Shown in pieces: positions 575 through 18,770 of a stretch of DNA of 64,000 nucleotides (the first letter of the stretch is position 1; every line of letters begins with the position of its first letter). The translations under genes and the position numbers were made by a program. Under the pieces are notes generated by a model. The model was not told where the DNA came from, did not search any database, and was given only the letters and a program-made list of their open reading frames with translations. The DNA is from an uncultured delta proteobacterium (GTDB taxonomy: Bacteria; Myxococcota_A; Polyangia; Polyangiales; Polyangiaceae): contig CAVQUB010000005.1 in the NCBI GenBank assembly GCA_963716725.1, forward strand, positions 640,001-704,000, given 5' to 3'.

Positions 575-2680
575 ATGGGCGTGAACCTCCGCCTGGCCTC
601 GGTCCTGCTGGTCTTCGCGCTCCTGCTCGGGGGCTGCGGTCCCTCGGCCGACCCGGCGCCCCGGGCGGCCCGCGCCGAGCTGACCGGTGACTCGCCCCTG
701 ATCGCTCACTTCCGGGACGCCGAGCGCGCGCGCGGAGTGCCCGCCGAGTTGCTCGCGACCATCGCCTACGCCCAGACCCGCCTCAGCATGAACCTGAGCG
801 CTGGCGAGGAGCACGCGTCGGACCACGATCACAACCCACGCGAGTGGGGCCTGATGGCCATTGGCACCGGTGGCCTGACTTCGCCCGATGCTGCCGCGCT
901 TCTCGTGGGCACCGGCGTAGAGCGCGTGAAGACCGAGGCCCGCGTCAACATCCTGGCCGCGGCTGCCCTGCTCCGGACCTCGGGTCATGCCCGCGGAGTC
1001 GGCGCCGAAGACGACCTCGTGAGCTGGACGAGCGTCGTCGAGTCTTACGGTGGATTGGCGCTCGTGGAGCAGGTGCGTGCGCTCCTGGCGACCGGGTGGA
1101 AGGGACACGACGACAGCGGCTACGCAGTGGCGGTCAGTGGTATCGCGCTCGACGCCGACGAGCTGGGCAGCGTGCAACAAGCACTGGGCTTCCCCGGTGC
1201 GATTTGGAGCCCTGCCTACTCGGGCAACTACACCAACGCGTCACGCGGCGCCGCGCAGATCAACTACGTCATCATTCACACTACGCAGGGCAGCTACGCG
1301 GGCGCCATCTCGTGGTTCAAGAACTCGACGTCCAACGTGTCGGCGCACTACGTCATTCGCTCCAGCGACGGACAGGTCACCCAGATGGTCGACGACGCCG
1401 ACGTCGCGTGGCACGACGGTTGTTTCAACACCAACACCATCGGCATCGAGCACGAGGGTTACGTCGCCGATCCCGGCAAGTGGTACACCGAGGCCATGTA
1501 CAAGGCGTCGGCCAAGCTCACGGGCTGGCTCTGCGATCAGTACGGGATCCCCAAGGATCGCAAGCACATCATGGGTCACGGTGAGGCGCCGGACTGCTCG
1601 GACCACACCGATCCGGGCAGCGGTTGGAACTGGAATCACTACATGGATCTGGTCGTCAACGGCGCGTGCACGCCCAAGACCGAGGTCTGCAACGGCAAGG
1701 ACGACGACTGCGACGGCAAAGTGGATGAAGGCGACGCCTGCAACCAAGCGCCGACGGGGCACGTCGATGAAGTGAGCTGCGACGCCATTCGTGGCTGGGC
1801 CCAAGACCCTGACGCGAAGACCAAGGCCATCGACGTTCACCTCTACTTCGGCGGGCCGCCGGGCTCGGCCGCCCCGGGCGTCCCACTGACGGCCAACGTC
1901 AAACGTGACGACCTGTGCACGGCCCTCGGATCGTGCAATCACGCCTTCGACATCCTCCCGCCGCTCTCCCTCTTCGACGGCAAGGCGCACGCGGTTCACG
2001 CTTACGGCATCGACACCGCGGGCGGCACCAACGCGGCCCTGACCGGCAGCCCAAAGAACATCAATTGCACCGCGACCGTGCCCAAGGGTGTGCGGCGCCA
2101 TGTGGTGGATCCGACCAGCCTCGATGCCTGGAAGCTCGACCTGTTCTGGGACGCGCTGCCGCTGACCGACCAGCAGATCGCGACGCTCGACCCGGCGGAT
2201 GCCTGGCCCGAAGCGCCCCAGCTGGTGCAAGCCGACGACGGTTCCCCTGAGGTGTGGATCGTCGACGGCGAGTGGCGTCGTCACGTCCCGAGCCCCGAAG
2301 TGATGGGAACCTGGGCGCTCTCCTTCGACGCTGTGAAGAAGGTCCCCGCTGCCGAGGTGAAGGCGCTGCTTGAAGGACCCAAGCTCAGGTCGCGCCCCGT
2401 CCTGGTCAAAGACAGCACGGGCAAGGTCGAGATGATCGACGCCCCGATGCCCGCACCGGGAGCTGCTGTGTCCTTGCCCACGCCAGACGAGCAGGGCTGG
2501 GGTGGTGGCGGCGGTGTGGGCGGGAAACCCGGCGCGAAGCCTGGACCGAAGGCCGCGCACGACTCGGACGCCGACGACCTCGGGACCTCGTGCGCCGTCG
2601 GGCCGCGGCCGCGGTCGGGCGGCGCTTGGGCGCTCTTCGCCCTGCTGGGCGTCCCGCTGCTCCGTCGTCGTCGCGGCTGA
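575..2680 (+). CDS. Lipoprotein N-acetylmuramoyl-L-alanine amidase (Amidase_2) with N-terminal SLT-like region, Cys/Asp metal-binding motif and MYXO-CTERM tail
   Basis: Lipobox LLGGC; amidase motifs IIHTT, SAHY, AWH, IGIEHEG, GH...HTDPG; EVCNGKDDDCDGKVDEG motif; C-terminal SCAVG...WALFALLGVPLLRRRRG. Confidence 0.88.
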   Translation: MGVNLRLASVLLVFALLLGGCGPSADPAPRAARAELTGDSPLIAHFRDAERARGVPAELLATIAYAQTRLSMNLSAGEEHASDHDHNPREWGLMAIGTGGLTSPDAAALLVGTGVERVKTEARVNILAAAALLRTSGHARGVGAEDDLVSWTSVVESYGGLALVEQVRALLATGWKGHDDSGYAVAVSGIALDADELGSVQQALGFPGAIWSPAYSGNYTNASRGAAQINYVIIHTTQGSYAGAISWFKNSTSNVSAHYVIRSSDGQVTQMVDDADVAWHDGCFNTNTIGIEHEGYVADPGKWYTEAMYKASAKLTGWLCDQYGIPKDRKHIMGHGEAPDCSDHTDPGSGWNWNHYMDLVVNGACTPKTEVCNGKDDDCDGKVDEGDACNQAPTGHVDEVSCDAIRGWAQDPDAKTKAIDVHLYFGGPPGSAAPGVPLTANVKRDDLCTALGSCNHAFDILPPLSLFDGKAHAVHAYGIDTAGGTNAALTGSPKNINCTATVPKGVRRHVVDPTSLDAWKLDLFWDALPLTDQQIATLDPADAWPEAPQLVQADDGSPEVWIVDGEWRRHVPSPEVMGTWALSFDAVKKVPAAEVKALLEGPKLRSRPVLVKDSTGKVEMIDAPMPAPGAAVSLPTPDEQGWGGGGGVGGKPGAKPGPKAAHDSDADDLGTSCAVGPRPRSGGAWALFALLGVPLLRRRRG

Positions 2681-2798
2681 ATTGACGCCCGCCGGCGAGT
2701 TCACTCTGGGCGCGTAGCGCCGCGTTCACGCTCGTCGCGCGCACCGGCACCATTTCTTGGACTTCCCGCACTGGTACGAAAGCTGCTCAGCTGGCGGA

Positions 2799-3596
2799 AT
2801 GATTCTCACGCGTGCTGGATGGGTCGTCGCCGTTCTCGTCGTCACCGGGCACGCGCAGGCACAGCCCGAGGCCGCGCCCCAGCCCGACGCGACCCCGCCG
2901 CCCCCGCCGGCACAACCGGGCTTCCATCCCTCGGCGCCGGCGACCGCGCCGCCCCCGCTCCCGCCGGAGGCGCCGCCGCCCGAATCGAGCCGCGCCACCC
3001 GCGAACCCGTCGAGCTGCACCTGCTGCTCGGCTTTGGCAGCGCGGTCTGCGACAACAAGAAGCCCGACAGCGACTGCCCCGTCGACGGAGGCGCAGCCTT
3101 TGCTCTCGGGGGCGGATGGCGCTTCCACGATCACTGGTCGGTGGGGCTCGAGCTCGCCGCCTGGAGCTTCAAGGTACGCGACTCGTGGAAGGGTCAGCTG
3201 CAAGACGACGCGACCGACGTGAAGTTCGGCTCGACCTACTTCGCCGCGTTCGCGCGTTGGTACTGGTTCGACCCCGGCACCATCAATCCGTACCTGCAAG
3301 CCGGGATCGGATTTGGCACGGTGACCGCCGAGGCATCGAACAAGAACGCGACCTACACCTACAGCGCGCCCGGCATCGTCTATCCGCTGGCCATCGGCGC
3401 CGAGTTTCAGGTCTCGAAGCTGTTCCGCATCGGCCCGCAGTTCGGCGCTTACCTGCACGTCGCCAACAAGGTCTGTCAGGACCCCGGCGGCAACGAGACC
3501 TGCACCAGCCCGGGCAAGAACGAAGACGGCGAGCGCGAGGGGCTGGCGCTTCCGTGGCGGCTCGTCGCGGTCGGCACCTTCACCTTCGGGAGCTGA
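2799..3596 (+). CDS. Outer-membrane beta-barrel protein with Pro-rich N-terminal linker
   Basis: Signal peptide ending AQA, Pro-rich spacer, alternating beta-strands (GGGWRF, NPYLQAGIGFG, IGAEFQV), ends GTFTFGS. Confidence 0.65.
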   Translation: MILTRAGWVVAVLVVTGHAQAQPEAAPQPDATPPPPPAQPGFHPSAPATAPPPLPPEAPPPESSRATREPVELHLLLGFGSAVCDNKKPDSDCPVDGGAAFALGGGWRFHDHWSVGLELAAWSFKVRDSWKGQLQDDATDVKFGSTYFAAFARWYWFDPGTINPYLQAGIGFGTVTAEASNKNATYTYSAPGIVYPLAIGAEFQVSKLFRIGPQFGAYLHVANKVCQDPGGNETCTSPGKNEDGEREGLALPWRLVAVGTFTFGS

Positions 3597-3642
3597 GCCG
3601 GGGTAGCGCTTGCCGTCGCTCTTGGGGTAAGCGAAGAGCGGC

Positions 3643-4455
3643 ATGCGTCTAGCTCACCTCGGACCGGCGGGAACCTTCGGCGAGAGCGCCGCGTTTGCGT
3701 GGGCGCCCGACGCCGAGTACCTGCCGGTGTCGAGTCACGCTGGCGTCGTGGCGGCGGTGACCGAGGGCGCGGCGCACGCCGGGGTCCTGGCCATGGAGAA
3801 CAGCATCGAGGGCTCCGTGAGCGAGACGCTCGACCTCTTGATCCACGACACCGACCTCGCCATCACCGGCGAGGTCATCGTGCCCGTCGGGCATTGCCTG
3901 ATCACGCGGGCGGGCACACCTCGGGACGCGATCCAAGTGGTCTACTCGCACCCCCAGGCCCTCGCCCAATGCCGCAAGTACCTCGAGCGTGAGCTGCCCG
4001 CGGCGCGGGTCGAAGCCACGCTCTCCACCGTGGCTGGCGTTGAACGCGCGCTTGAGACGGACGCTGCCGCTGCCATTGGATCGTCGCGCGCGGCCCAGCG
4101 TTTTTCGGCAGAGGTCCTTGCGAGCGGCGTGCAGGATCGAGCAGGCAACGTCACGCGCTTCGTGATCGTCGCTGGGACCGACGCGGCGCCCAGCGGGTGC
4201 GACAAGACCAGCCTGGCCTTCAAGACCGCTCACGACCGGCCCGGCACGCTGGTCGACGTTTTGAGCGATTTGGCTTCGAGAGGGATCAACCTCAGCAAGA
4301 TCGAGTCGCGCCCCGCTCGCGATGCGCTGGGCATCTACGTGTTTCTGCTCGACTTCGAAGGGCACCGCGGCGACGCGGTCGTGGCCGAAGCCCTGGCGCA
4401 GGTGCGGCAGAAGACCAGCTGGCTCAAGGTCTTCGGCTCGTATCCTCGGGCCTGA
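3643..4455 (+). CDS. pheA: Prephenate dehydratase (PDT + ACT)
   Basis: LGPAGTF, ENSIEGSV, SHPQALAQC, NVTRF, NLSKIESRP and GSYP motifs. Confidence 0.95.
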   Translation: MRLAHLGPAGTFGESAAFAWAPDAEYLPVSSHAGVVAAVTEGAAHAGVLAMENSIEGSVSETLDLLIHDTDLAITGEVIVPVGHCLITRAGTPRDAIQVVYSHPQALAQCRKYLERELPAARVEATLSTVAGVERALETDAAAAIGSSRAAQRFSAEVLASGVQDRAGNVTRFVIVAGTDAAPSGCDKTSLAFKTAHDRPGTLVDVLSDLASRGINLSKIESRPARDALGIYVFLLDFEGHRGDAVVAEALAQVRQKTSWLKVFGSYPRA

Positions 4456-4471
4456 GTTCCCGCGACGCTTG

Positions 4472-5329
4472 TCAGCCGATCCGCAAGATCACCAGCGCGG
4501 TCGCCACGTAGGCCATGGCTTCGATGGCGCCCATGCCCACGTTCTTGTCGCGAGCGATCTCGGTGTCGAGGGTTCCCCCGCGGAGCGAAAACGATCCGAG
4601 CAGGATGGTCTGGACGATGAGTTGGCGAACCACGTAGAGGCCCGCGCCCCAGGAGAGCGCCTTGCCATACGCCAGCATCGAGTCACCCCAACCGGTGAAG
4701 GTGCCTTCGACGGCCTGGCCGACGATGACGGCGACGGCCACCGTGAGGCCAGCGTAGCTGAGCGCCGCCGCGACGTTGCCGTTCTGTATTTCAGCCGAGT
4801 CGTCGTACTTGGTGAGCATCCGGAACAAGAGCACCAAGATGTGGAGCGTGACCTGGGCGATCGCGAAGAACACCAGCGACAAGCCCAAGGTCTTGAGGTC
4901 GCTGCCGGCGACCGCCCGAGCCACGATGATGCCGGTGGCCAGGGAGTGCGCTCCGCCGGCGATGCCCGCGGCGATGTTGCCCGCCTCGATCTCAGCGTTC
5001 ATGCGCGACTTGAGCAGCAGGCGCACGCCCAAGCGCGAGGTCACGAGGTAGAGCACGAGGGCCGCGACGCCGAAGGCCGTCACCCAGAGGAGGTCGGCCT
5101 TCCAACTCTTCTCTTCCATGCTGCCCGTGGCGATGTTCGCCGCGATCAAGAAGATGCCGAACACGTCGCCGCCGTGCAGCATCGCGCGGGCCGCGTTGCC
5201 CTGTTCGAGATCCGCCTTGACTGTCTGTTTCGGGGACAGAATGCGGAGGCCGAGCTGGAACAGCAGCAGGAGCACGAGCGTCGCGCCGAGCGCGAACGCG
5301 AGGCGGTAGAGCGGGCTATCGGGTTGCAT
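4472..5329 (-). CDS. Tandem DUF350-family membrane protein
   Basis: Hydrophobic, with four repeats of the DUF350-type motif: DLEQGNAA, EIEAGNIAAGI, EIQNGNVAAAL, EIARDKNVGMG. Confidence 0.75.
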   Translation of the reverse strand: MQPDSPLYRLAFALGATLVLLLLFQLGLRILSPKQTVKADLEQGNAARAMLHGGDVFGIFLIAANIATGSMEEKSWKADLLWVTAFGVAALVLYLVTSRLGVRLLLKSRMNAEIEAGNIAAGIAGGAHSLATGIIVARAVAGSDLKTLGLSLVFFAIAQVTLHILVLLFRMLTKYDDSAEIQNGNVAAALSYAGLTVAVAVIVGQAVEGTFTGWGDSMLAYGKALSWGAGLYVVRQLIVQTILLGSFSLRGGTLDTEIARDKNVGMGAIEAMAYVATALVILRIG

Positions 5330-5359
5330 GGCGGGTCCGAGCCTATCACGGCCCCGGTG

Positions 5360-5434
5360 GCGCCCTTGACCCCGTTCGGCACGCGGACGATGCTGGCCGC
5401 GAGCCGTGCTGCCGTTTTCGGCTTCCGAGCTGCG
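5360..5434 (+). repeat. Direct repeat copy 1 (duplicate of the upstream region and first codons of the Rieske gene)
   Basis: gcgcccttgaccccgttcggcacgcggacgatgctggccgcgagccgtg(6-nt gap)ctgccgttttcggcttccgagctgcg matches 7398..7478 with two substitutions and a 6-nt indel. Confidence 0.92.
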
Positions 5435-5468
5435 AGCTGGTCGCCGCCATCACGGGCGGCTTGCTGGC

Positions 5469-7333
5469 CTACCGCGCACTCACCCGCGCCGGTCCCGTCT
5501 CCGCACGTGCTTCGGGCTCGTAGTACGCATAAGCGACCGACGGCGGCGCCAGTGCGCTGACCCGCATCACTGCGCGCAGACGGAAGGCGAAGCGCTTGCT
5601 CGTGGCCGCGGGAAGGCGATCCAAGTAGACGACGACCCCGCTCGACGTGGGTTGATAGCGCCGCAGCGTGCCGTCGCTGACCAGTTTTTCGAGATCGCTC
5701 GTCTGTAGCTCGAAGCCCGGCGGAATGCCGATCTCGAGGGTCGGCATGTTCATGGCGTTGTTGCGCTTCCAGCCCAGTTCCACCCGGCACTCCAGGGTCT
5801 GGCCGACTGATACGCTGGCAGGGGAGTAGCCGACCCGAAGCGAGACAGCGTCGCTCTCGCCCGCTCGTCCTGCTCCGGTCCACGGCAGATGATGAACGAA
5901 AGCGAGCTGGTACGAGTGGTCGGCGCTGGCGGCGCCTTCGAACTCCACGACGTTTTCGCCGGACCGGACGTGCTCGGTCAACCCGAGCAACTGGTGAACG
6001 TCACGATTGCCCGCGTTCAAGCTGAGCTCCGCGGAGGGAACTCCGTTCACGCGCACCTTGACGAGCTGGTCCCCCGATTCGACATGCTTCGCCCCATCGA
6101 GCAGAGCGCGCAACGCCGCGACGCTGGCTGAAGCGCTGGCCCAAGCGCCGGATGCGTCGCGGCGCGAGAGCAGCCAAGCGTGCGCCTCGACGCGAAGTTC
6201 AGGCTCTAGATCGAGCTTCGACAAGAGATGGGCGACGAGGGCCGTGACCTCGACCTGGAGGGATTCACCGTAGCTGAACATCACGCCCTCTCGCCCGGAC
6301 TTCCAATGGGCCTTTCCGTCTTTTCGCTCCACGAGGGTCGCCAGCCGCGCCGCGATCTTCGACGCGGCGTCGCGATGACCGCCGCTCGACAGGGCGTTGC
6401 CAAAGAGCGCGAGTTCGTACGCATCCGTGGTGGAGTCGTCGCTTTCCAGCTTGGCTAGCGCACGCACGAGACGCTCGTCCTTGATTCCCGACTCGGCGAG
6501 CGCCCAGGCCACGTACGCCGTGGTGGCGAGCAGGCTCGAGCGGGACGCGGACACGGCCGAAGACCCACCCTGGCTGGAGGTGGCCCAGCTGCCGTCGTCG
6601 CGTTGGCCTGCCAACAAGAAGCGGCGAGTTCGCTCGATGAGCTGCTCGTCCACGGGCCTGACCTTGGCCATGTCGGAGAATTCGAGCAGCCCATAGGCGC
6701 TGAGGACGACGTCGCCCGTTGCTCTCCCAAACCAGCTGAACCCGCCGCCTTCGACCTCGAAGGTGAGCAGGCGTTGATACCCCTCGTCGATGTAGGCGCG
6801 GGCCTTCTTCTCGACCTCGGGACTCTGCAGGTTGGAGCGCCGGAGGAAGTCGAGCACGAGCACGTTCGGATAGGTCGTCGACGAGGTCTGCTCGAAGCAG
6901 CCGTACGGTCGCCGAAGCACGCCGTCGAGCGACTCCGCGAGCTGACTGAGCACCCCCCCATACAGCTTCAGCGTCAGCAGGTTGCCACCGGCGATCGCGT
7001 CCCTGGGCACCGTCACCACGAGTCGAGTGGCCTTGCCCAGAGTGCCGCTCTCGACGTGCTCCACCGGCAGCCCGTCGGGCTTGACGCTGATCTTCCGCTC
7101 GACCGCGTCCGCCAGGGACGGCGCGCATGGATCCGGAAGCGCACGGTCCCGCCCGGAAACCCCGTCGCTGCGCCGTCTATCGCGAGTGCGGGCACGACAC
7201 CGGGATTGCCCCTGAGCGGGCCGCGCAACGCCGAGAAGAACCAGGCGCCGAGGGCGACGAAGACAACGGCAACCAGGACCCAAAATCGATGATCCAACCA
7301 CGGAATGTCCCGCTCGACCGGAGTCGGCCCCAT
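5469..7333 (-). pseudogene. Internally deleted, frameshifted alpha-2-macroglobulin family gene (TM anchor joined out of frame to thioester and C-terminal domains)
   Basis: Frame A from ATG 7333: TM helix then PGGTVRFRIHA (MG2-like). Near 7120-7127 the A2M-like sequence continues in another frame: DAVERKISVKPDG...PYGCFEQTSS (CxEQ)...GGGFSWFG...AYAYYEPE. About 620 codons, versus >1500 aa typical of bacterial A2M. Confidence 0.75.
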
Positions 7334-7397
7334 AGAGCGGCATCATGAACGTGTCGTGTCCGGGCGCGCAACGGTTGTGTCGAAACCCCGTTTGGTC

Positions 7398-7478
7398 GCG
7401 CCCTTGACCCCGTTCGGCACGCGGACGATGCTGGCTGCGAGCCGTGCCCCCTCTGCCGTTTACGGCTTCCGAGCTGCG
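7398..7478 (+). repeat. Direct repeat copy 2; contains possible -35 TTGACC and start of the Rieske gene
   Basis: See 5360..5434. TTGACC-N17-GATGCT lies upstream of GTG 7444; the promoter role is inference. Confidence 0.9.
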
Positions 7479-8589
7479 TTCGGTGCTCGCGCCCGTCGCG
7501 AGGGCCGAGCCCCTGCCCAAGGCGGCCTACGCCGATCCGTCGGTGTTCGCCCTCGAACGCGTGCAGCTCTTCGATCGCGCGTGGCTCGCTGTGTGCCACG
7601 GTTCGGAAGTCGAGGCGCCGGGGTCCTTCGTGAAGGCGCCCGTCACTCCCGAAGGCATCCTGGTCGCGCGCGGCGCCGACCTCCGACTCCACGCGCACTA
7701 CAACGTGTGTCGGCATCGCGGGGCGCTGGTCTGTCACGAGCGCGCGGGCCGCACCGACGCGTTTGTTTGTCCGTACCACGCTTGGCGATACGAGCTCACG
7801 GGCCGGCTCTCCTCCGCGCCGGGAACCCGCGGCCTCGAAGATTTTCGGCTCGCCGATCGAGGCCTCTCGCCGGTCCGGGTCGAGGAGTGGCAGGGCTTGG
7901 TGTTCGTCAATCTAGCCGCCGACGCGCCGCCCTTGGCCGCCGCGCTCGCTCCGGCTCCCGAGCACCTCGGGCGGCTGCACCTGGCTCAGCTCCGCCTCGG
8001 GCGGCGCGTCGAGCACGAGGTCGCTGCCAACTGGAAGCTCCTGATCGAGAACTTCCAGGAGTCACATCACTTCCGCAGCGTGCATCCGATGCTCGAGCGT
8101 TGGACGCCCTTCGAGCGATCGTCGAGCTTCATCTCCGACGGAGCGTGGCTCGGCGGCACGATGGAGCTGGTCGACGAGGCCGAGACCGTCTCGCTCGACG
8201 GTCAGCGACACGGTCGTCCCTTGCTCGGTGGGAGCAGTGACCTCGATCGGCGTCGGGTCTACGACTACTTCTGCTTTCCGAACCTGCTCTTGAGCGTGCA
8301 GCCGGACTACCTGCTGACCTACCGCATCTGGCCCCTCGCCCCCGACCGCAGCCGGGTGACCGCCGACATCCTGTTTCACCCGGGCGCCTTCAGCGACGGC
8401 TTCGACCCCAGCGACGTCTACGAGTTCTGGGACGTCACCAACCGCGAAGACCGGGAGATCTGCGAGAGTCAACAGATCGGAATCGCCTCCCGGGGCTTTG
8501 ACCGCGGCCGCTTTGCCACGAGCGAAGACGGAACGCACGCCTTCGACGGGCGCATCGCCCGCTTCTACTTGGAGCACATCGACGTATGA
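7444..8589 (+). CDS. Rieske non-heme iron oxygenase alpha subunit (choline/glycine-betaine oxygenase-like group)
   Basis: Rieske CRH...CPYH; ANWKLLIENFQESHHF..VHP iron site; FPNL; C-terminal EDREICESQQ. Confidence 0.9.
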   Translation: MPPLPFTASELRSVLAPVARAEPLPKAAYADPSVFALERVQLFDRAWLAVCHGSEVEAPGSFVKAPVTPEGILVARGADLRLHAHYNVCRHRGALVCHERAGRTDAFVCPYHAWRYELTGRLSSAPGTRGLEDFRLADRGLSPVRVEEWQGLVFVNLAADAPPLAAALAPAPEHLGRLHLAQLRLGRRVEHEVAANWKLLIENFQESHHFRSVHPMLERWTPFERSSSFISDGAWLGGTMELVDEAETVSLDGQRHGRPLLGGSSDLDRRRVYDYFCFPNLLLSVQPDYLLTYRIWPLAPDRSRVTADILFHPGAFSDGFDPSDVYEFWDVTNREDREICESQQIGIASRGFDRGRFATSEDGTHAFDGRIARFYLEHIDV

Positions 8590-9407
8590 GCCAACTCTGG
8601 GGTGTCTTCGGTCAGCCATTCCTCGATCTCGAGCCCCACGTGGACCTCGGGTTGCTCTCGGAGCTCGACGACGAGATCTGCGCGGGCCTGGCCGAGGTCG
8701 AGGTCGGCTACACCGGCGGCAGCCTGAAGTGGATGGAGGTGGCCGCGCCCTGGGTGCTCGACGACCCCTACGAAGATCTGGGCTGGGTCATCGAGCGCAT
8801 GACCCGCGAAGAGCGCGAAAAGCTGGTCTCACTCGCCGACGATCCGAGCCTCTTCGAGGCTGACAAGCTGATGCAGTACCAGTTCGGGGATGAAACCGAG
8901 CACCCGCTCTCTCGGAAGCAAGCGCGCTGGCTCGAGTACCGGTTCGGCGTCTACTTTCCGTGGAAGGTGGTCTTCCACCTGCTCGAGAACTTCAGCTGGG
9001 ACGACAACCAGAACGGGCGGGGCAAGGAGTGGAACCCCGAGGCGCTGCGCCACTTTCCCAAGACCGTGGCTTTCGTGAAGTCGCTGCCCTTCACCGAGAT
9101 CGGTCGTTGCGTGCTCTTCGGCCTCTCGCCCAACGATCACGCCACCGTGCACCGCGACAGCGAGCCGGGCAGCAGCGTCTCCGTCGCGCAGTGCATCAAC
9201 GTCTGTCCGCGGGGCGACAAACGCTTCTTCTTGGTCGATCCAGAGGGCGAGCAGCAGACCTTCGTGACCCCGCGCGTGTACTGGTTCAACGACATGGACT
9301 ACCACGGCGTCGAGGCCGATCCGTGGTTTCGCTACTCGATCCGCGTGGATGGCAAGCTCGACCCCGCGTTCGTGAACAAGCTGAGCCGCGAGGCGCGGGC
9401 GAGGTGA
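8586..9407 (+). CDS. Uncharacterised putative Fe(II)/2OG-type (DSBH, AspH-like) oxygenase, paralog 1
   Basis: Overlaps the Rieske stop (ATGA); C-terminal HRD...WFNDMDYHGV...RYSIR pattern; strongly similar to 10738..11562. Confidence 0.6.
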   Translation: MSQLWGVFGQPFLDLEPHVDLGLLSELDDEICAGLAEVEVGYTGGSLKWMEVAAPWVLDDPYEDLGWVIERMTREEREKLVSLADDPSLFEADKLMQYQFGDETEHPLSRKQARWLEYRFGVYFPWKVVFHLLENFSWDDNQNGRGKEWNPEALRHFPKTVAFVKSLPFTEIGRCVLFGLSPNDHATVHRDSEPGSSVSVAQCINVCPRGDKRFFLVDPEGEQQTFVTPRVYWFNDMDYHGVEADPWFRYSIRVDGKLDPAFVNKLSREARAR

Positions 9408-9413
9408 GCGAAG

Positions 9414-10664
9414 CTACGCGTCGCGCCGGACCAAGGTCGCGACGCTCATGGCTTCGTCCGTCGTCGCGCCCTTGTGCGTGCGCGAGTAGATGCCCGCGGC
9501 GCAGCCGGCCACCAGATAGACCCCGTAGTTGACCACGTCTCCGTTCTCGTTGGCGCGGGCTTCGAAGTATCGTTGAGCGACCCAGTGGCCGGGGCGAGCA
9601 TGCAGCAAGCACTTGTTCCAATCGTCGGCCGTGGACAGCTTGCCGATGATCACCTCTTCGCCTTCGGCGCCGTAGTCGCTCTTCAGCACCCACTCGTCCT
9701 TCTCGGCGACCAGGGCTGCTTCCGCCATCGTCTCCAGGCGGAAGGTCGCCGGAATGAACTGGCGAATGACGTTCTGCGCCGCGGGTCCAAAGCGGTGGAT
9801 GTGCTCCCACATCAAGGCCATGGCTCGCTTGTTCTGGGGCAGCACGGCGCCGAAGGGGTTCACGACGCAGAGCTTGCCGGCCAGGGAGGCGGCAATGGCG
9901 ATCCCCAGGGGTTCGCGCAGAGGCTCCGTGTCCGGGAGGTTCTCGTCGTCCCAGGCGGTTAGCCGCTCGCCCCACCAGTCCGTCTTGTAGTGGCGGAGCA
10001 TGACGCTGAAGGGCACGTCGAACAGGCACGCGCGTCCTTCGCTGTCGAGCGTCAGGTTGTAGGGCGACCCGAGCACCACCTCCCAGCCGCGATCCTCGAA
10101 CCAGCGTTTGAAGAGTCGGATCACGCCGAGGTCCTCGGTGAACTCCGTGGGGTACACGATGCCGGCGACGCGGGCGTGCTCCGCGCCCAGCGTGTAGCGC
10201 GCCAGGCCCTCGACCATCTCGCAATAGGTCGCCTCGAGGGTGGCGTTTGGATCATCGGTCTCGGGGTGGCTCGGGTGCACGACCCGGTTCAGGATGATCG
10301 CCTCGGCTTCGCCGGTTGGCGTGTCGCTGTTCAGCTCGGCGAAGGCGAAGCCCTCGTCGGTCGAGAATACGTCGGCGCGGGCGATGCCGTGCCACGTCGG
10401 TCGCGAGGACTCCCACATCGCCTTCTGGAATTCCGTGAGCTGAAAGAAGGTGTCGAGCAGAGCCGGGTCGTCCGCGCACATGCAGCAGACGTCGTTGTAG
10501 ACGCCGGCGACCTGCTCCGAGGCGCGGTACAGCGCGTCCCGCTCCCGCGGCGAGAGGATCAGCGGTCGCTCGGCGAGCCGCGGTTTGCCTCGGATCCACG
10601 GGTCAGTGACGATGCCTGACTCGACCACTTGGGCGGCAAAGTCGTCGTAGCTCGGTTCGCTCAT
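9414..10664 (-). CDS. Glutathionylspermidine synthetase-like ATP-grasp ligase (YgiC/YjfC-like; no amidase domain)
   Basis: ARADVF, ELNSDTPTG (ExN), NKRAMALMWE, WVLKSDYGAEGEEV, WVAQRY, GVYLVAG..AGIYSR. Start placed at MSEPSY (10664). Confidence 0.85.
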   Translation of the reverse strand: MSEPSYDDFAAQVVESGIVTDPWIRGKPRLAERPLILSPRERDALYRASEQVAGVYNDVCCMCADDPALLDTFFQLTEFQKAMWESSRPTWHGIARADVFSTDEGFAFAELNSDTPTGEAEAIILNRVVHPSHPETDDPNATLEATYCEMVEGLARYTLGAEHARVAGIVYPTEFTEDLGVIRLFKRWFEDRGWEVVLGSPYNLTLDSEGRACLFDVPFSVMLRHYKTDWWGERLTAWDDENLPDTEPLREPLGIAIAASLAGKLCVVNPFGAVLPQNKRAMALMWEHIHRFGPAAQNVIRQFIPATFRLETMAEAALVAEKDEWVLKSDYGAEGEEVIIGKLSTADDWNKCLLHARPGHWVAQRYFEARANENGDVVNYGVYLVAGCAAGIYSRTHKGATTDEAMSVATLVRRDA

Positions 10665-10737
10665 GCGGGAGGGCGCGAGCCTAGCGCAGTCGAAAGACTT
10701 TGAGCACGCTACGCTCTCGGGATAGCGTGGCCGCGCG

Positions 10738-11562
10738 GTGATACACGGCATCTGGGGCCACCCCTTCATCGATCTCGAGCCGCACTTGGATTTGTCCGAG
10801 CTCGAAGCCATCCACGCAGAGGTCTGCCTCGGGCTCGCGCAGGTGCCCGCTGCGTACACGGGCGGCAGCCACCGTTCGATGGGCATCATGCCGGCTTCGC
10901 GCGCCGAGGAAGGTCTCGGGGATTACGGCAGCGTGCTCAGCGAGCTCTCCGCCACCGAGCGCGCCGTCTTCGCGTCGCTCGCGGACGATCCGATCGGCGC
11001 CCGCGAAGAAGACACCCTCGACTTCGGCGAAGAGCGCCCTTGCACGCTCTCGCGTCGGCAACAGCTCTGGCTCGAGTACCGCCACGGCGTCTACTTTCCG
11101 TGGAAGGTCTATTACGAGATGATCCCGAATCACTATTGGGACGAGAAGAGCAGCGCGGCGGGCAAGGCCTTCACGCGTGAGGCGCGCACCTTCTTCCCCA
11201 AGACCGTCGCCTTCGTGAAGAGCCTGCCTTTCATCCAGATCGGGCGCTGCAACATCATGGGCCTCTGCGCCCACGACCATGGCACCGTTCACCTGGACGG
11301 CGATCCGCTGCAAAAGGCCGAGGTGGACCACTTCGTCAGCTTCTGCCCCGGAGGCAACAAGCGCTTGTTTCTCTGGGACGAGGAGCGCACACAGAAGGTC
11401 CAGGTCGAGCGGCGCGCGTTTTGGTTCAACGACAGCGACTACCACGGGGTAGAAGCCGCGCCGTTTTTCAGATATTCGATCCGAGTGGACGGGGTGTTTC
11501 AGCCGGAGTTCTTTGATCGACTCCGAGAGAGCCACCCCGCGCCGACCCGAGGAGCCTCGTGA
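10738..11562 (+). CDS. Uncharacterised putative Fe(II)/2OG-type (DSBH, AspH-like) oxygenase, paralog 2
   Basis: HLD...WFNDSDYHGV...RYSIRVDG; shares WLEYRxGVYFPWKV and FPKTVAFVKSLPF with 8586..9407. Confidence 0.6.
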   Translation: MIHGIWGHPFIDLEPHLDLSELEAIHAEVCLGLAQVPAAYTGGSHRSMGIMPASRAEEGLGDYGSVLSELSATERAVFASLADDPIGAREEDTLDFGEERPCTLSRRQQLWLEYRHGVYFPWKVYYEMIPNHYWDEKSSAAGKAFTREARTFFPKTVAFVKSLPFIQIGRCNIMGLCAHDHGTVHLDGDPLQKAEVDHFVSFCPGGNKRLFLWDEERTQKVQVERRAFWFNDSDYHGVEAAPFFRYSIRVDGVFQPEFFDRLRESHPAPTRGAS

Positions 11563-13007
11563 ATCCGAACGACCCGTCATTCAAAGAAGCGTATCGCGTC
11601 GAGAAACCGGGCATCGTCGGTGCCAAGTGGTGGCAAGAGGGCTTGGTTGAGCAGGCGGCGGTGGCCATGCCGCGCCGATCCGCCCTCGCTGGCATGATCG
11701 GGCTCGCGACCGCCGTTGGTGCCATCGCCCTGATTGGCAGCGCACTGGCCATCTGCGGCGCCGCCAGCGACGACGAGGTCGAATTCAAGACCATCGATCA
11801 AGCGTCGCTCCAGGCACAGCGCAACTACGGCTGGAACTTCGGCGCCGTCACCGAGAACCTGGTCTTCGATGGAGCGCAGAAGACGCCCTTCGATCGCGGC
11901 GCCCTCGCACGCTTGCGCAACGAGCTGATGCCGGTGAAGGGCGATCTGCGACCCTACTACTGGCCCACGCTCTTCGAAGCGCCAACCGCGATGCCGAAGA
12001 CGCCCATCGAGGGGGAGTCGCCCACCACGCCGCTCGCGAACGTGCTGACGCCGGTGTTCACCGCGGCGATGGACGTCGCCTACAAACGCGGTCGAGCTCT
12101 GGCCGCGCTCTTCGAGAAGGCCACGCCCGACACCGCGGTGCTGGTCGACTTGCCGGGGCCCGAGTCCGTGGCCATGGCCGCCGGCATGGCCGAGCGATTC
12201 GAGCCGGTGGCGACCTTCGACAACTGGCCGCATCCGCGCGGCGTCGTGCCCGCGCACCTGACCCTGGCCGCGGCGGCCTACTACCAGCCATTGTTCGCCA
12301 AAGCGCAGAAACGGCGCACGCTGACCGCGCTCCCACTGATGGTGCTCGATCGCAAACGCCTCAGCCCCTACGCCGACGAGACGCGCCAGTTCGACAACCG
12401 CTACGTCGCCAAACTGCCGCCGCCCGCGGGGTTCAAGCAGCTGGGTGTGAAGCGCCTGCTTTACGTGGTGCCCGGCGGCGCCGACGCGGCGGAGCTCGAC
12501 GATTTGAACCAGGACTTCGTGGAGTACGAGAAGGCCGGCATCGACGTGAAGATGGTCGCCGCATCGGACTTCAGCGCCGGCAACCCCAGCCTCCCGCCCG
12601 CCGACAAACAGGCGCTCGAGCAGGCCGGGGACTGGCCGCCCTACTACTATGGCGGCGACACCGGATCGTCGGACGGCTTCTGGTCGGATTACGGCTGGGA
12701 CGCTGGCACGACCGCGCGAAGCCCGAAGCTCGGGACCAGCCGCCGTTCGTCGTCGCACCGGAGTTGGTCGCCCGCAGCGAGGGCCACGGCCTTCGGATCG
12801 AGCACCTCGGGCACGAGCGCGAGCGCCGACGGCACGGGGTCGATGAGCAAGACCGCCAAGGTCGCCGTCGGAACCGTCGGCGTGGCAGTCGCAGCGGGCA
12901 CGGGGATCGTGCTCGGCACGCGCTACGGCACCGGCCGCAGCAGCGGTGTGCGCACGGGCGGACGCAGCGGCTCCTTTGGTCGCTCGAGCGGATCGGGGTG
13001 GGGCTGA
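11559..13007 (+). CDS. Hypothetical membrane-anchored/exported protein with Gly/Ser/Arg-rich C-terminal tail
   Basis: Overlaps both neighbours; PRRSAL + hydrophobic stretch + Cys near the N-terminus; tail ...SSGVRTGGRSGSFGRSSGSGWG. Confidence 0.75.
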   Translation: MNPNDPSFKEAYRVEKPGIVGAKWWQEGLVEQAAVAMPRRSALAGMIGLATAVGAIALIGSALAICGAASDDEVEFKTIDQASLQAQRNYGWNFGAVTENLVFDGAQKTPFDRGALARLRNELMPVKGDLRPYYWPTLFEAPTAMPKTPIEGESPTTPLANVLTPVFTAAMDVAYKRGRALAALFEKATPDTAVLVDLPGPESVAMAAGMAERFEPVATFDNWPHPRGVVPAHLTLAAAAYYQPLFAKAQKRRTLTALPLMVLDRKRLSPYADETRQFDNRYVAKLPPPAGFKQLGVKRLLYVVPGGADAAELDDLNQDFVEYEKAGIDVKMVAASDFSAGNPSLPPADKQALEQAGDWPPYYYGGDTGSSDGFWSDYGWDAGTTARSPKLGTSRRSSSHRSWSPAARATAFGSSTSGTSASADGTGSMSKTAKVAVGTVGVAVAAGTGIVLGTRYGTGRSSGVRTGGRSGSFGRSSGSGWG

Positions 13008-13564
13008 TGAGCAACTCGCTCTTCGCGGTGGAGATTGCCGCGCACACTCACCCGAACGATCCTTTTCGTCAGGCGCTGCACCACCTGATCCGCTCGCAGC
13101 CCTCGATGCAGTCGCCGATCCAGAAGCGGCAGCTCTACTACCAAGCGGTGCAGCACATCGGCGCGAACTTTGCTGCCGTCGAGCGAGGCTGTTGGGACTA
13201 CTGGCCCGACCACGACAAGGCCGTTGCCGACTTCGAAATGTGGACGCAAGGCATGGTCACCGAAGAGGGAGCGCGCCCTGGACCCGCCTACGACGGTCCG
13301 CCGCGATACCTGACCTTCACCATGGCGTTCTTGATGGTGCACGGCTCGCCGACCGATCAGGCGATTGCCCAGCGCTGCAACATCCAGCAAGAGAGCCTCT
13401 GGCGTCGCGACGTGTTCGGCTACATCGTGCAGGCGGCGGCCTCCATCGACTTTGGGGACGTGCAAGGCGACGTCGTCTATCTGATCCCCGGCGACGACGG
13501 CTTCGCGCTCACTCCGCAGGACTTGGCCCAGCCCAAATTCGAATATCTGAGGCCCATCGCCTGA
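13007..13564 (+). CDS. Hypothetical protein, DUF1517-like core
   Basis: TGATG coupling to the upstream gene. The pattern RYLTFTMAF...DVVYLIPGDDGFALTPQDL...YLRPI resembles the DUF1517 C-terminus as I recall it (unverified). Confidence 0.55.
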   Translation: MSNSLFAVEIAAHTHPNDPFRQALHHLIRSQPSMQSPIQKRQLYYQAVQHIGANFAAVERGCWDYWPDHDKAVADFEMWTQGMVTEEGARPGPAYDGPPRYLTFTMAFLMVHGSPTDQAIAQRCNIQQESLWRRDVFGYIVQAAASIDFGDVQGDVVYLIPGDDGFALTPQDLAQPKFEYLRPIA

Positions 13565-13572
13565 GCCGCGGC

Positions 13573-14328
13573 TCAGAACCAGACCTCCCACAGCCCCGGC
13601 TCGACCTCGGCGGCGTGGGCCGTGACGCTGATGCGATCGCGTCGGCCGCCGAAGGGCTGGATCTGGTGCAGCCGGTAGCTGTCGAATACACACAGCTCTC
13701 CCACGCGGTACTCGACCACCTCGCAGGGGTGGTCCAGCTCCTCGTCGGTGGCCTCGTCGGCGCCGGAGTAGTGCACGTCCCAGAGCGCGATGCCCCCGCC
13801 ACGCTGGGGAGCCTGCAACATCAACAACAGCGACAGCGCCGGCCTCCGCTCCCGCGCCTGCTCCTCGCTCAGCCCTTCGGTGTCGAAGTGCACGATCCCG
13901 CCGCGGTGCGCGACCACGTCGCCGCTCGGAAAGACGTGCACGCCGGGCCCGCACCAATCGGCTCGCTGCACGGCGCGACCCCCGCCCAGGGCCTGGACCG
14001 CGCCGATCATGCGCTGCTGCACGCCGGGCAGCGTCGCCTCGACCAGCGCGTTCGAAGCCGCGGCTTCGGCGAAGTACTCGTCTGAGCGGTCTTCCTCGAG
14101 GTGCGTGTACCAGGCGCGCCCGAGCGAGTGTTGCTCGCCCTCGAAGGCCGCGGTCCAGCGCTCGCGGGCCGCGTACACCGCGCGCGTCCACCCGTGGCAC
14201 TCGTGCCACGACGCGAAGCCCGGGACTCGGATCGCTGAGTGACGCGACACGTCCGCGATCAACCGATCGCGATCCCCGGGCTCGGCCGGCGGCCAGCTGA
14301 GCACCCGTGGCTCGTCGCTCGAGGTCAT
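13573..14328 (-). CDS. 2OG-Fe(II) oxygenase superfamily protein
   Basis: VHFD, LSLLLMLQAPQRGGGI, GELCVFDSYRLHQI, RISVTAH (HxD...H...RxS). Start MTSSDEP at 14328. Confidence 0.8.
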   Translation of the reverse strand: MTSSDEPRVLSWPPAEPGDRDRLIADVSRHSAIRVPGFASWHECHGWTRAVYAARERWTAAFEGEQHSLGRAWYTHLEEDRSDEYFAEAAASNALVEATLPGVQQRMIGAVQALGGGRAVQRADWCGPGVHVFPSGDVVAHRGGIVHFDTEGLSEEQARERRPALSLLLMLQAPQRGGGIALWDVHYSGADEATDEELDHPCEVVEYRVGELCVFDSYRLHQIQPFGGRRDRISVTAHAAEVEPGLWEVWF

Positions 14329-14372
14329 GTCCGCGCGACGGTGTCCAGCCGGCGGCGCGACGTCAAGGTGGG

Positions 14373-14873
14373 TCACGGAATCAGCATCGGGCACACCGGG
14401 CTGCAGTTGGTCTGAAGGCACGTCGACACGCCTAAAAAGATCTGCGTGGAGGCCAGGCAGGCCGGGCACTGGCCCGGCACGCAGCCGAAAGCGCTCTGCC
14501 CGAGGCAACTCTCGAGGTAGCAGCGCAGCTGCTGCGCGCAGCTCTGGTCCGCGAGGCAGGTGTTCGTCTGAGAGCAGCAGTTGTCTCGTCCGCACTGATC
14601 GCAGGTCGCGTTGCCGGTGGTGATGAGCGGGCTCTGACAGGTCTGCTGGAAGAGCTCGCTCGTGCATTTGTTCGCGGGCGCGTCTGGACCGGAGTCCACG
14701 CTGCCGCCGGTGCCGGCCTCCGCGTCCGAGCCGCCGGAGCCGCCGCTGCCGGAGGAGTCTGCTCCCGCGTCGCTGCCTCCGGTCTCGCCGTCGGCGGAGA
14801 ACTCGCTGCCGCCGCAGCCGACCACGAGCGCGATCACGCACCCGAGCCCGAGCATTCGAGACAAACCGCCCAT
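14373..14873 (-). CDS. Cys-rich lipoprotein with Gly/Ser linker
   Basis: Lipobox VVGC, Gly/Ser linker, C-terminal domain with CxxC/CC pattern. Confidence 0.7.
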   Translation of the reverse strand: MGGLSRMLGLGCVIALVVGCGGSEFSADGETGGSDAGADSSGSGGSGGSDAEAGTGGSVDSGPDAPANKCTSELFQQTCQSPLITTGNATCDQCGRDNCCSQTNTCLADQSCAQQLRCYLESCLGQSAFGCVPGQCPACLASTQIFLGVSTCLQTNCSPVCPMLIP

Positions 14874-15021
14874 CACCGGTGATTGTTCTCCGAAGCGCCT
14901 CCCGCGGCAAGACAAGAGTCGGCGAAGCTTCAGCAGTCGGCGCAACGGCTCGTGACTGAGCGTTCGTGGGCACCCCTGAGACGCGCTTGTCGCCCTAGCG
15001 GCCTCGTGGCATGTGCGACGC

Positions 15022-16458
15022 ATGAAGCGTGCGGTCGTCTTGGCGCTTGGTGGATGGCTGCTCTTGGGCAGCGGCTGTGGTTCCGACGACGGGGACGGCA
15101 AGCCCGCTGGCGCATCGACCATCGGCGCACCCGGTGTTTGGTTCGACGGCTTGGCGCTGTATCAGGGACCGAAGCGAACGCTGATGGTGGGCGGCACGCC
15201 AGGGCAGGGAGTGCCCATCGTCGCCGGACGCGACGCGTTGTTCCGGGTCTTTCACGCCATGGGGCCGGAGTACGACGGGCAGCCGGTCACGGCGAAGCTG
15301 GATCTGCTCGACGGGCAGCCAGCCCTCGAGGTCGTTGCGCCGCTCGCACCGAACTACAGCGAAGGCGATCTGCAAAGCACCCTCAACTTCCAAATCCCGG
15401 GCGGCCGCATCGGCGACGAGTTTGGCTACGAGCTGACGCTCTCGCAGCCTGCCGGCGGGCGCGCTGACAATCCGAACGCACGCTTCGGGCAGAAGGTCGC
15501 GGTGGCGGGGAAGCAGAACACGCTGCGCGTCATGCTCGTGCCCTTTGCGTACCAAGCGGACGGCTCCGGCCGCTTGCCAGACACCTCGCCGGAGGAGGTG
15601 GAGCGTTATCGCAAGCGCTTGCTCGCGCTCTATCCGGTGTCGAACGTCGAGGTCTCGGTGCACGATCCGGTGCCTTGGACCACCGCCATCGGCTCAAAGG
15701 GCGAAGGTTGGCAATCGGTCGGGATCAAGCTCTACGGCCTCCGGAACGCCGAGGGCATCCCGCCGGACGTCTACCTGTACGCGGTGTTCATGCCGACCGC
15801 GACCCTGGGTCAGTTCTGCAATCCAAGCTGCCAGCTCGGCGTGACGCTGCTCAACAATGACCCGCCGGACGTTGGCAACGTGTCGTTGCGCTTGGCGCTC
15901 GGCGTGGGCTATCCGGAGGTGGCTCAGGACACGGCCGCTCACGAGCTGGGCCACGCCCACGGGCGCGGCCACGCAAACTGTGGCTTCGGCCTCGATCCGT
16001 CGAGCATCGATCAGAGCTTCCCGCACCCGAAGGGGTCCATCGGCGACTGGGCCTACGACATCACCAGTGGTCAGATGCACGACCCCGCGGTGGCGACCGA
16101 CATCATGAGCTACTGCAAGAACCAGTTCATCTCGGGCTACAACTACGAGAAGCTGTCGGCGCGCGGACAGAACGTGAACCTGGCCAGCGTCATCGCGACG
16201 CCCCAGCCCTACTGGCTGATCGCCGAGGACGGCCTCGGCGAGGCCGAGTGGCAGCAGATTGAGCTCTCCGGCTTGCCGAGCGGTCGGCAGGTGGAGGTGA
16301 CGGCTCGGACTGGCGAACGCGGGTCCTTCAGCACCCAGGGCTGGTACACGCCCTACGATCATTTGAACGGAGGCTGGCTGCTCGTTCCCGCCAGCGTCGG
16401 TGACCTGAAGAGCGTCGAGCACCGCGCTCGGGGCGCGCTCGCGGTCATCGACCGCTAG
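15022..16458 (+). CDS. Lipoprotein zinc metallopeptidase (metzincin, M66-like)
   Basis: Lipobox GSGC; HELGHAHGRGH (HExxHxxGxxH); Met-turn DIMSYC. Confidence 0.85.
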   Translation: MKRAVVLALGGWLLLGSGCGSDDGDGKPAGASTIGAPGVWFDGLALYQGPKRTLMVGGTPGQGVPIVAGRDALFRVFHAMGPEYDGQPVTAKLDLLDGQPALEVVAPLAPNYSEGDLQSTLNFQIPGGRIGDEFGYELTLSQPAGGRADNPNARFGQKVAVAGKQNTLRVMLVPFAYQADGSGRLPDTSPEEVERYRKRLLALYPVSNVEVSVHDPVPWTTAIGSKGEGWQSVGIKLYGLRNAEGIPPDVYLYAVFMPTATLGQFCNPSCQLGVTLLNNDPPDVGNVSLRLALGVGYPEVAQDTAAHELGHAHGRGHANCGFGLDPSSIDQSFPHPKGSIGDWAYDITSGQMHDPAVATDIMSYCKNQFISGYNYEKLSARGQNVNLASVIATPQPYWLIAEDGLGEAEWQQIELSGLPSGRQVEVTARTGERGSFSTQGWYTPYDHLNGGWLLVPASVGDLKSVEHRARGALAVIDR

Positions 16459-16482
16459 GCCGAGAGCCCCCGCGCTGGGGCA

Positions 16483-17784: not shown

Positions 17785-17809
17785 CGAAGATGCTCCGTCG
17801 GGTACTCAG

Positions 17810-18706: not shown

Positions 18707-18770
18707 GGGGCCTGCCTACCATGGGCATCCTCGACCTTCCAGGCGGGGTCCGAGTAGACTCGCTTTCAGC

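Follow-up and report, generated by a model that had tools for sequence, protein, structure and literature searches.

Gene content of the locus

We analyzed a stretch of 64,000 nucleotides (hereafter the window) from the genome of an uncultured delta proteobacterium (Myxococcota, family Polyangiaceae; assembly GCA_963716725.1, contig CAVQUB010000005.1, positions 640,001 to 704,000 of the forward strand), in which eight tightly packed genes bring together an ATP-grasp amide ligase of the GSP-synthetase family (E), a tandem DUF350 membrane protein (A), four putative non-heme iron oxygenases (C, D, F, and I), a protein with a tail of arginine, serine, and glycine (G), and a small soluble protein (H) (Table 1). 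The source genome (~67% G+C) comprises 7.9 Mb in 35 contigs with a completeness estimate of 84%, and Polyangiaceae is the label carried by the closest relatives of the window proteins. Scans of open reading frames (ORFs) and protein families, with Pfam run on 16 ORFs from position 575 to 18757, confirmed the gene set and the coordinates 4472–14328 that had been proposed in a sequence-only reading of the window; these coordinates account for the gene overlaps (8586, 11559, and 13007) and for the close convergent ends (9407/9414 and 13564/13573). All four oxygenases that the same reading had placed beside the ligase are supported by domains, fold, or motifs, and reductase-like families are absent among the 16 ORFs, in keeping with its remark that the cluster holds no Rieske reductase.

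Table 1. Genes and repeats of the cluster, in window coordinates
Feature	Position	Strand	Evidence
A: tandem DUF350 (YjfL-family) membrane protein, 285 aa	4472..5329	-	Pfam DUF350, two stretches, E 2.4e-36
Left direct-repeat copy	5356..5434	+	Duplicates the Rieske upstream region and first codons
B: alpha-2-macroglobulin gene fragment, local insert	5469..7100	-	TED_complement 1.5e-38, A2M_recep 1.6e-13
Right direct-repeat copy	7394..7478	+	Holds the Rieske start codon (7444)
C: Rieske non-heme iron oxygenase, alpha subunit only, 381 aa	7444..8589	+	Rieske 4.4e-16 (PF00355, 59 bits), Ring_hydroxyl_A 1.1e-44 (PF00848, 153.2 bits)
D: 2-oxoglutarate (2OG)/Fe(II)-oxygenase-fold protein without Pfam model, 273 aa	8586..9407	+	Predicted fold, HxD...H...RxS
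E: GSP-synthetase-family ATP-grasp amide ligase, 416 aa	9414..10664	-	Pfam GSP_synth PF03738 1.4e-13, 51.3 bits vs cut-off 29.3
F: paralogue of D, 274 aa	10738..11562	+	48% identity to D
G: putative partner protein with R/S/G tail, 482 aa	11559..13007	+	Alignments, tail
H: soluble protein, likely remote DUF1517 relative, 185 aa	13007..13564	+	Intermediate sequences and protein atlas features
I: WelO5-like 2OG/Fe(II) oxygenase with HxD, 251 aa	13573..14328	-	WelO5 3.3e-6, 2OG-FeII_Oxy_5 1.1e-4

Conservation across genomes

Related loci were collected with an alignment of D and F as seed, which gave 195 relatives in 185,579 species genomes; the best 80 of these 195 were fetched with flanks of up to 10 kb per side, many of them shortened by contig ends, and their gene content was called by tblastn with the window proteins. 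Counts from these loci and from the census described below are given without a significance test, and related genomes are not independent. The gene-neighborhood comparison that had been suggested together with the sequence-only reading found the oxygenases adjoining the ATP-grasp and DUF350 genes in other genomes as well: all eight genes lie together in 17 of the 80 loci, and the commonest full order (C+ D+ E- A- F+ G+ H+ I-) is present in 13. Such loci include three from Acidobacteriota metagenome-assembled genomes (L033, L040, which lacks A, and L047), the other all-gene loci being from Polyangiaceae. Across the 80 loci, C was found in 68, E in 46, A in 38, F in 33, G in 29, and H and I in 25 each, and among the 30 loci with full flanks from outside the genus Sorangium the corresponding numbers are 29 (C), 22 (E, within 10 kb of D), 19 (A), 18 (F), 16 (G), 15 (H), and 13 (I). 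C adjoins D in 68 loci, at a distance of at most 100 nt in 54, and F sits between A/E and G in 33.

In a census of the phylum, an evenly drawn sample of 301 genomes was queried with H, D, and E. H was matched in 18 genomes, and E scored at least 326 bits in the same 18, a threshold that was set after the gap to the next match (112 bits) was visible; E and H lie at most 3.5 kb apart in 15 of them. Strong D matches occur in nine genomes, seven of them among the 18 and the other two being G115 (780 contigs) and G101, and each of the seven has a D or F copy within ~10 kb of E. The other 11 core-bearing genomes have no D match. Seven of these no-D regions were fetched and contain co-directional A-E-G-H (L083, L084, L088, L089, and L090) or E-G-H (L085 and L087) in flanks that are unrelated in all seven; the H genes of L084 and L089 were missed by tblastn and placed from census matches just beyond the G gene. 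A locus from another family (L086) has the arrangement F-E-G-H-I. Because A-E-G-H occurs elsewhere without oxygenases, we regard it as the core of the cluster, with F and I as tight additions and C-D as a looser one. The sequence-only view of the locus as one system stands in that the genes are clustered across genomes, and has to be qualified in that A-E-G-H and the Rieske-D pair each also occur alone.

In L085 (11929-15645), an E-G-H operon that has neither the oxygenases nor DUF350 is followed immediately by two radical-SAM genes. All-vs-all clustering of six-frame ORFs from 81 loci recovered no partner beyond the eight families, antisense shadows, and Sorangium-specific flanks, a weak negative because single linkage merged some families.

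The ligase and its tailed partner

The placement of E in the GSP-synthetase family is corroborated by a profile of its own family, which matches the Escherichia coli enzyme GspS (PDB 3o98 and 2io7; E 0.0046) as the only solved structure; a phmmer search of the PDB with E itself gave nothing useful. In BLASTP comparisons with the E. coli ligases, E reaches E values of 0.002 with YjfC and 0.15 with YgiC. The ligase carries no signal sequence. Protein A, which has several 19-aa hydrophobic segments, is encoded directly downstream of E in most related loci, and in the window and its two closest relatives its gene is shifted upstream of C, across the C-D pair.

From its N-terminus, protein G shows a conserved WW motif and then an invariant RR that precedes a hydrophobic segment; an alpha/beta core and another hydrophobic stretch follow, and the protein closes with an R/S/G tail whose last residue is Gly. 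Its family, which numbers 822 proteins in database clusters, had no Pfam match among 19 members searched at E ≤ 1 and no sequence match in the PDB. The predicted structure (pLDDT 67, with a better core at residues 75–380) is a generic alpha/beta domain for which Foldseek returned nothing from the PDB at E ≤ 0.001, and VIA-align over 48,161 chains reached a best Z of 4.5, so that no fold was assigned. A G homologue (P0465) fell only among unnamed clusters in the protein atlas (0.87–0.88). One G gene (L047:13987-15312) contains an in-frame stop, and L047 was left out of the G alignment.

The most distinctive feature of G is its C-terminus. Of 39 G-family frames, counted over complete ends with a few partial or mis-hit frames, 34 end in Gly, three in Ser, and one each in Trp and Asn; the background among 933 ORFs of the same loci is 111 Gly ends (11.9%) and 2.3% Gly-Gly ends. 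The usual ending is R-S-G-S-W-N-R followed by a few S/G residues and [W/Y/F]-G-G, with a G-F-G-x-V element ahead of it, and in that ORF set the tail motif occurs in 16 G orthologues only. Similar tails are found on the neighbors of the E. coli ligases, as YgiB ends in ...RSMGG and YjfM in ...RGHWGG, both with an RGG[F/Y]G element upstream. Six further loci of the phylum encode distant GSP-like ligases (27–32% identity to E) whose next same-strand gene ends in ...GGFG...GG; the tailed neighbors are ~300 aa long in five of the six and 435 aa in L101, and one of the ~300-aa proteins aligns with the G core (hhalign 97.5%, E 8.4e-12, 195 columns). Since five of the six lack a hydrophobic segment, this form of the partner should be cytoplasmic and would be accessible to the ligase. 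The earlier suggestion of ligation onto the tail thus gains comparative rather than direct support, from the conserved Gly end and from the like tails beside YgiC, YjfC, and other GSP-like ligases. A complex prediction for E with the G tail (residues 436–482) and ATP scored 0.01, which speaks neither for nor against binding. The idea that G is itself a DUF1190 protein was rejected for its globular part, as there was no DUF1190 match among 19 members (E ≤ 1) and hhalign against YjfM gave a probability of 0.1%; only the tails are alike.

Protein H and DUF1517

Pfam, NCBIfam, and PDB searches with H gave nothing usable, and the protein contains no hydrophobic segment. It had been described from sequence as DUF1517-like, yet none of 23 family members matched PF07466 (E ≤ 1), nor was there a DUF1517 match in its own genome (E ≤ 10). 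The connection comes instead from intermediate sequences and language-model features. A profile of H against 1.84 billion representatives found 212 relatives, nearly all of ~190 aa, and among 24 that were distant or of odd length three pass the DUF1517 cut-off and seven match at E < 0.1; in the protein atlas, DUF1517 clusters rank second and third for H (0.91 and 0.90) after the cluster of H itself. The earlier name appears right as a remote relationship. DUF1517 proteins have a glycine-rich N-terminus and are known from cyanobacteria and plants; H has no such glycine-rich part; in the cluster, its likeness is found at the end of G, the gene just before H. The H family comprises 260 database clusters.

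Four distant H/DUF1517-like proteins (P0382, P0365, P0331, and P0339) start with a twin-arginine-like RR-x-F-F/L-x-K-L motif that is not followed by a hydrophobic stretch. Another relative, the 317-aa P0306, is a fusion of an alpha/beta-hydrolase domain (38–137) with an H-like domain (152–315).

The four oxygenases

Protein C is most similar among solved chains to 3n0q, a putative aromatic-ring dioxygenase (8.7e-49), to 3vca (4.8e-43), which we take to be the stachydrine demethylase Stc2, and to the demethylase 4qup (6e-43), with the carnitine monooxygenase CntA (6y8j; 3.7e-38) within the top five. Its best NCBIfam model is that of the glycine betaine monooxygenase GbcA, where its score of 193.9 bits is far under the cut-off of 670, so that C is not a GbcA equivalog. 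Like the alpha-only amine Rieske enzymes (GbcA, CntA, and 4qup), C has both domains and scores best in this group; unlike them, it falls below the GbcA cut-off and has no reductase partner nearby. A Rieske-type putrescine hydroxylase, reportedly described in 2016, would be the nearest functional precedent.

The paralogues D and F had no match in Pfam, NCBIfam, or the PDB by sequence or profile search, although their family is sizeable (988 proteins in database clusters). A model of D predicted from 63 sequences has a pLDDT of 93.3, and with its C-terminal half Foldseek found 194 PDB matches at E ≤ 0.001. The matches listed are all 2OG or related Fe(II) oxygenases and include a nucleoside-antibiotic hydroxylase, AspH, AlkB/ALKBH5, prolyl hydroxylases, and proline cis-4-hydroxylase; the TM-score is low (~0.35) because the alignment spans only ~150 residues. 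In the motif HxD...H...RxS, residues H189, H240, R249, and S251 are invariant over the 63 sequences and D191 is present in at least 90%. On the predicted double-stranded beta-helix fold, the iron triad, and the basic residue for 2OG, we assign both proteins to the 2OG/Fe(II) oxygenase superfamily. Many D-family proteins are called "Rieske 2Fe-2S family protein" by JGI, a name that does not fit D, in which there is no Rieske domain, and that probably stems from the gene overlapping it upstream.

Protein I, scored on the long ORF, passes the Pfam WelO5 model by a borderline margin (27.3 bits against a cut-off of 27), and a phmmer search of the PDB gave nothing useful. In WelO5-type halogenases, the carboxylate of the iron triad is replaced by Gly or Ala. 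As H147-x-D149 is invariant in I, together with H221 and R232 (25 sequences), the protein is expected to be of the hydroxylase type and not of the halogenase type.

Amine metabolism and known systems

Sister modules elsewhere in the phylum have genes of amine metabolism at their side. In L097 (130-2653) and L099 (393-2712), an operon for a pyruvoyl arginine decarboxylase, an agmatinase, and a deoxyhypusine-synthase-like protein is divergent from a module of DUF350, GSP-like ligase, and tailed partner, with two DUF350 genes and two tailed partners in L099, and in L102 a flavin amine oxidase lies beside the sister module. The four oxygenases of the window occupy the accessory position that the amine genes hold there, so that accessory positions can be taken by amine-making, amine-oxidizing, or, here, oxygenase genes.

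The E. coli ligases YgiC and YjfC join spermidine to peptide carboxylates in vitro, and RefSeq now names both, encoded beside ygiB and yjfM, as peptide--spermidine ligase. On this point the statement of the sequence-only reading that these ligases lack a known substrate is outdated; a 2025 review continues to describe the physiological substrate of YgiC/YjfC-type ligases as unknown. Like yjfL-yjfM-yjfC (within yjfIJKLMC) and ygiB-ygiC, the cluster has a GSP-family ligase beside a DUF350 protein, and like the YjfM and YgiB partners, G has a long N-terminal region and a tail that ends in Gly-Gly; unlike these systems, G is not a DUF1190 protein, E is only marginally similar, and H and the four oxygenases are additional. 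DUF2170, DUF2491, and PspA genes are not among the 16 ORFs scanned, which likewise contain no Pfam family of PspA/IM30 with a CesT/Tir-like partner, and the envelope-stress role that had been considered for the cluster remains an analogy.

Two published groups of operons are also close to this arrangement. GSP-like ligase/DUF350/DUF1190 operons occur with AdoMet decarboxylase and polyamine oxidase (Ravi et al. 2024, PMC11237479); these PspA-linked and PspA-free polyamine operons share with the cluster the ligase and DUF350 logic with variable amine-acting accessory genes, and the partners named in the excerpted text are DUF1190, DUF2491, DUF4247, and DUF2617, with no Rieske/2OG oxygenases, G, or H among them. 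In the hss-gss clusters reported from beta-Proteobacteria and from a phage (Li et al. 2023, PMC9992855), a polyamine-making enzyme, homospermidine synthase, is likewise clustered with a GSP-synthetase homologue, but the partner is biosynthetic and not oxidative, and the excerpted description includes no G, H, or oxygenases. A characterized pathway matching the cluster was not found in the sequence libraries and literature searched. The literature on DUF350/YjfL, ATP-grasp, DUF1190/YjfM/YgiB, and DUF1517 yielded neither an oxygenase-bearing version nor the idea of the tail as substrate (Pederick et al. 2023 and Li et al. 2019 were outside the scope of this search).

Proposed function and alternatives

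The reading that we favor, with a confidence somewhat short of even, is that the cluster is a new variant of the yjfL-yjfM-yjfC type in which an amine would be tailored by the oxygenases and joined by the ligase to an acceptor, possibly the C-terminal glycine of G. By analogy, the core A-E-G-H would be the myxobacterial counterpart of E. coli yjfL-yjfM-yjfC and ygiB-ygiC, and in the Polyangiaceae this core appears to have recruited an accessory shell of four non-heme iron oxygenases. As its family membership suggests, E would activate a carboxylate with ATP and amidate it with a polyamine-type amine, and the tail comparisons point to the C-terminal glycine of G as the best candidate for this carboxylate. 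C, D, F, and I, judged by their position and families, would hydroxylate or N-dealkylate the amine before or after ligation, and A and H might assist G at the membrane. What the analysis shows is the gene content, the folds and motifs, the conservation and modularity of the cluster, and the shared tail; the chemistry throughout, including which amine is used, and the membrane side of the tail are inferred. RimK, which acts on ribosomal protein S6, and tubulin-tyrosine ligase are ATP-grasp enzymes whose target is the C-terminal carboxylate of one particular protein. They provide a mechanistic precedent for a tail-directed ligase, although both add amino acids instead of amines and belong to other ATP-grasp subfamilies.

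A fuller scheme is doubtful in its complete form: GSP-family ligases of this type would amidate protein C-termini, and E would add a polyamine, oxidized beforehand by the dedicated Rieske/2OG enzymes, to the terminal Gly of G in the cytoplasm. Insertion or export of G by way of its twin-arginine N-terminus would follow, and the product would be an envelope protein with covalently bound polyamine, for which H would be the cytoplasmic handler and A the membrane partner. If it were true, a first function would be gained for DUF350, DUF1190-type tails, DUF1517, and three unnamed families, and we know of no role for DUF350 so far. Should the oxygenases act on polyamines, they would represent a new polyamine oxidation route in the Myxococcota. 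The cluster adds a second, unrelated partner family with the same Gly-ended tail, defines three sizeable families without Pfam models (D/F, G, and H), and is a testable lead on the substrate of a widespread, physiologically unexplained kind of ligase.

Several observations weigh against the favored reading. The first concerns the ligase, as E is so distant from YgiC and YjfC that both amine and carboxylate could be quite different. The second is topology: the order of RR, hydrophobic segment, and acidic stretch in G predicts an outward-facing domain, possibly exported by the twin-arginine (Tat) route. The second hydrophobic stretch, present in the Polyangiaceae forms, could bring their tail back to the cytoplasm; it is missing in the simple-operon forms, where the tail would consequently lie outside the cytoplasm and ligation by the signal-less E would have to precede export. 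The third is the loose attachment of C-D, which is the only pair present in 28 of the 80 loci. Among 16 Sorangium loci, 14 have only C-D within 10 kb, and in four complete Sorangium genomes E lies 44–55 kb from D; in the Sorangium loci L025 and L029, E-A-F-G-H-I is found 3 kb from C-D. The C-D pair may serve another pathway. Moreover, E has an in-frame TAG in two Sorangium genomes (G001 and G004) and an in-frame stop in L029 (13667-14896), which was left out of the E alignment, and the stop-bearing genes may reflect decay of the module where C-D has moved away. The lack of a reductase gene for the Rieske enzyme within the cluster is a further point. Finally, kinship among the genomes means that the co-occurrence counts overstate the statistical support.

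An alternative that we consider unlikely is a small-molecule pathway, in which the oxygenases and the ligase would make or remodel a free metabolite, e.g., a hydroxylated polyamine amide serving as chelator, osmolyte, or signal, with A and G in its export or sensing and no substrate role for the tail. The formation of small-molecule amides is well known for GSP-family enzymes, and GspS is the one solved structure matched by the E profile; C groups with small-molecule amine oxygenases, and the fungal E-64 pathway pairs a 2OG oxygenase with ATP-grasp amide formation. Such a pathway would leave unexplained why, beside GSP-like ligases, a Gly-ended tail recurs on three globular parts that are unrelated to one another (DUF1190, the 435-aa L101 protein, and the G family with its soluble form of ~300 aa), as well as the strict E-G-H linkage where no oxygenase is present.

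It is also quite improbable, in our view, that the locus consists of two unrelated units whose adjacency was inherited in one lineage, with Rieske-D, perhaps with F and I, in a catabolism of amine- or betaine-like compounds and A-E-G-H as an independent membrane module. The solitary C-D pairs, their distance from E in the complete Sorangium genomes, the core-bearing genomes without D, and the origin of most loci from one family, which makes the counts non-independent, all agree with such a split. F nevertheless interrupts the core between A/E and G, and I lies immediately next to H, in most loci as a convergent gene; F and I are also retained in distant lineages (L086 and the three Acidobacteriota loci), and D occurs in seven of the 18 core genomes against two of the 283 without the core.

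Least probable of all is hydroxylation of a protein, in which D, F, and I would modify H or G (in the tail or WW segment) and the hydroxylated product would be a substrate or regulator of the ligase. The genes for F and I are interspersed with those for A, E, G, and H, and two protein-modifying enzymes, the aspartyl/asparaginyl hydroxylase AspH and an EF-Tu-bound prolyl hydroxylase, are among the best fold matches of D, but small-molecule and nucleic-acid oxygenases score equally over the same short alignment, and we know of no precedent for a Rieske enzyme such as the partner C as a protein hydroxylase.

Flanking genes and the alpha-2-macroglobulin insert

Downstream of the cluster, a Cys-rich ORF (14373-14816) and a 481-aa ORF (15013-16458) with a weak M66 peptidase match (E 0.0079) were not found in related loci and were excluded from it. 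Between A and C, the sequence-only reading had recognized a repeat-flanked insert with an alpha-2-macroglobulin gene, and this was borne out: the direct repeat of ~80 nt, whose copies consist of two segments 96% identical with a 6-nt indel between them, was confirmed, and A and C stand directly divergent in the two loci closest to this one, with 73–81 nt between them. The insertion duplicated ~80 nt that take in the first codons of the Rieske gene, and there was no sign of a transposase. B had no counterpart in the 80 related loci. It contains the TED and receptor-binding domains only and is 76% identical to the C-terminal 543 aa of a frame of 1634 aa that lies elsewhere in the genome, on contig C15 (G000:C15:86120-87736). 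It is a local insert and not part of the system.

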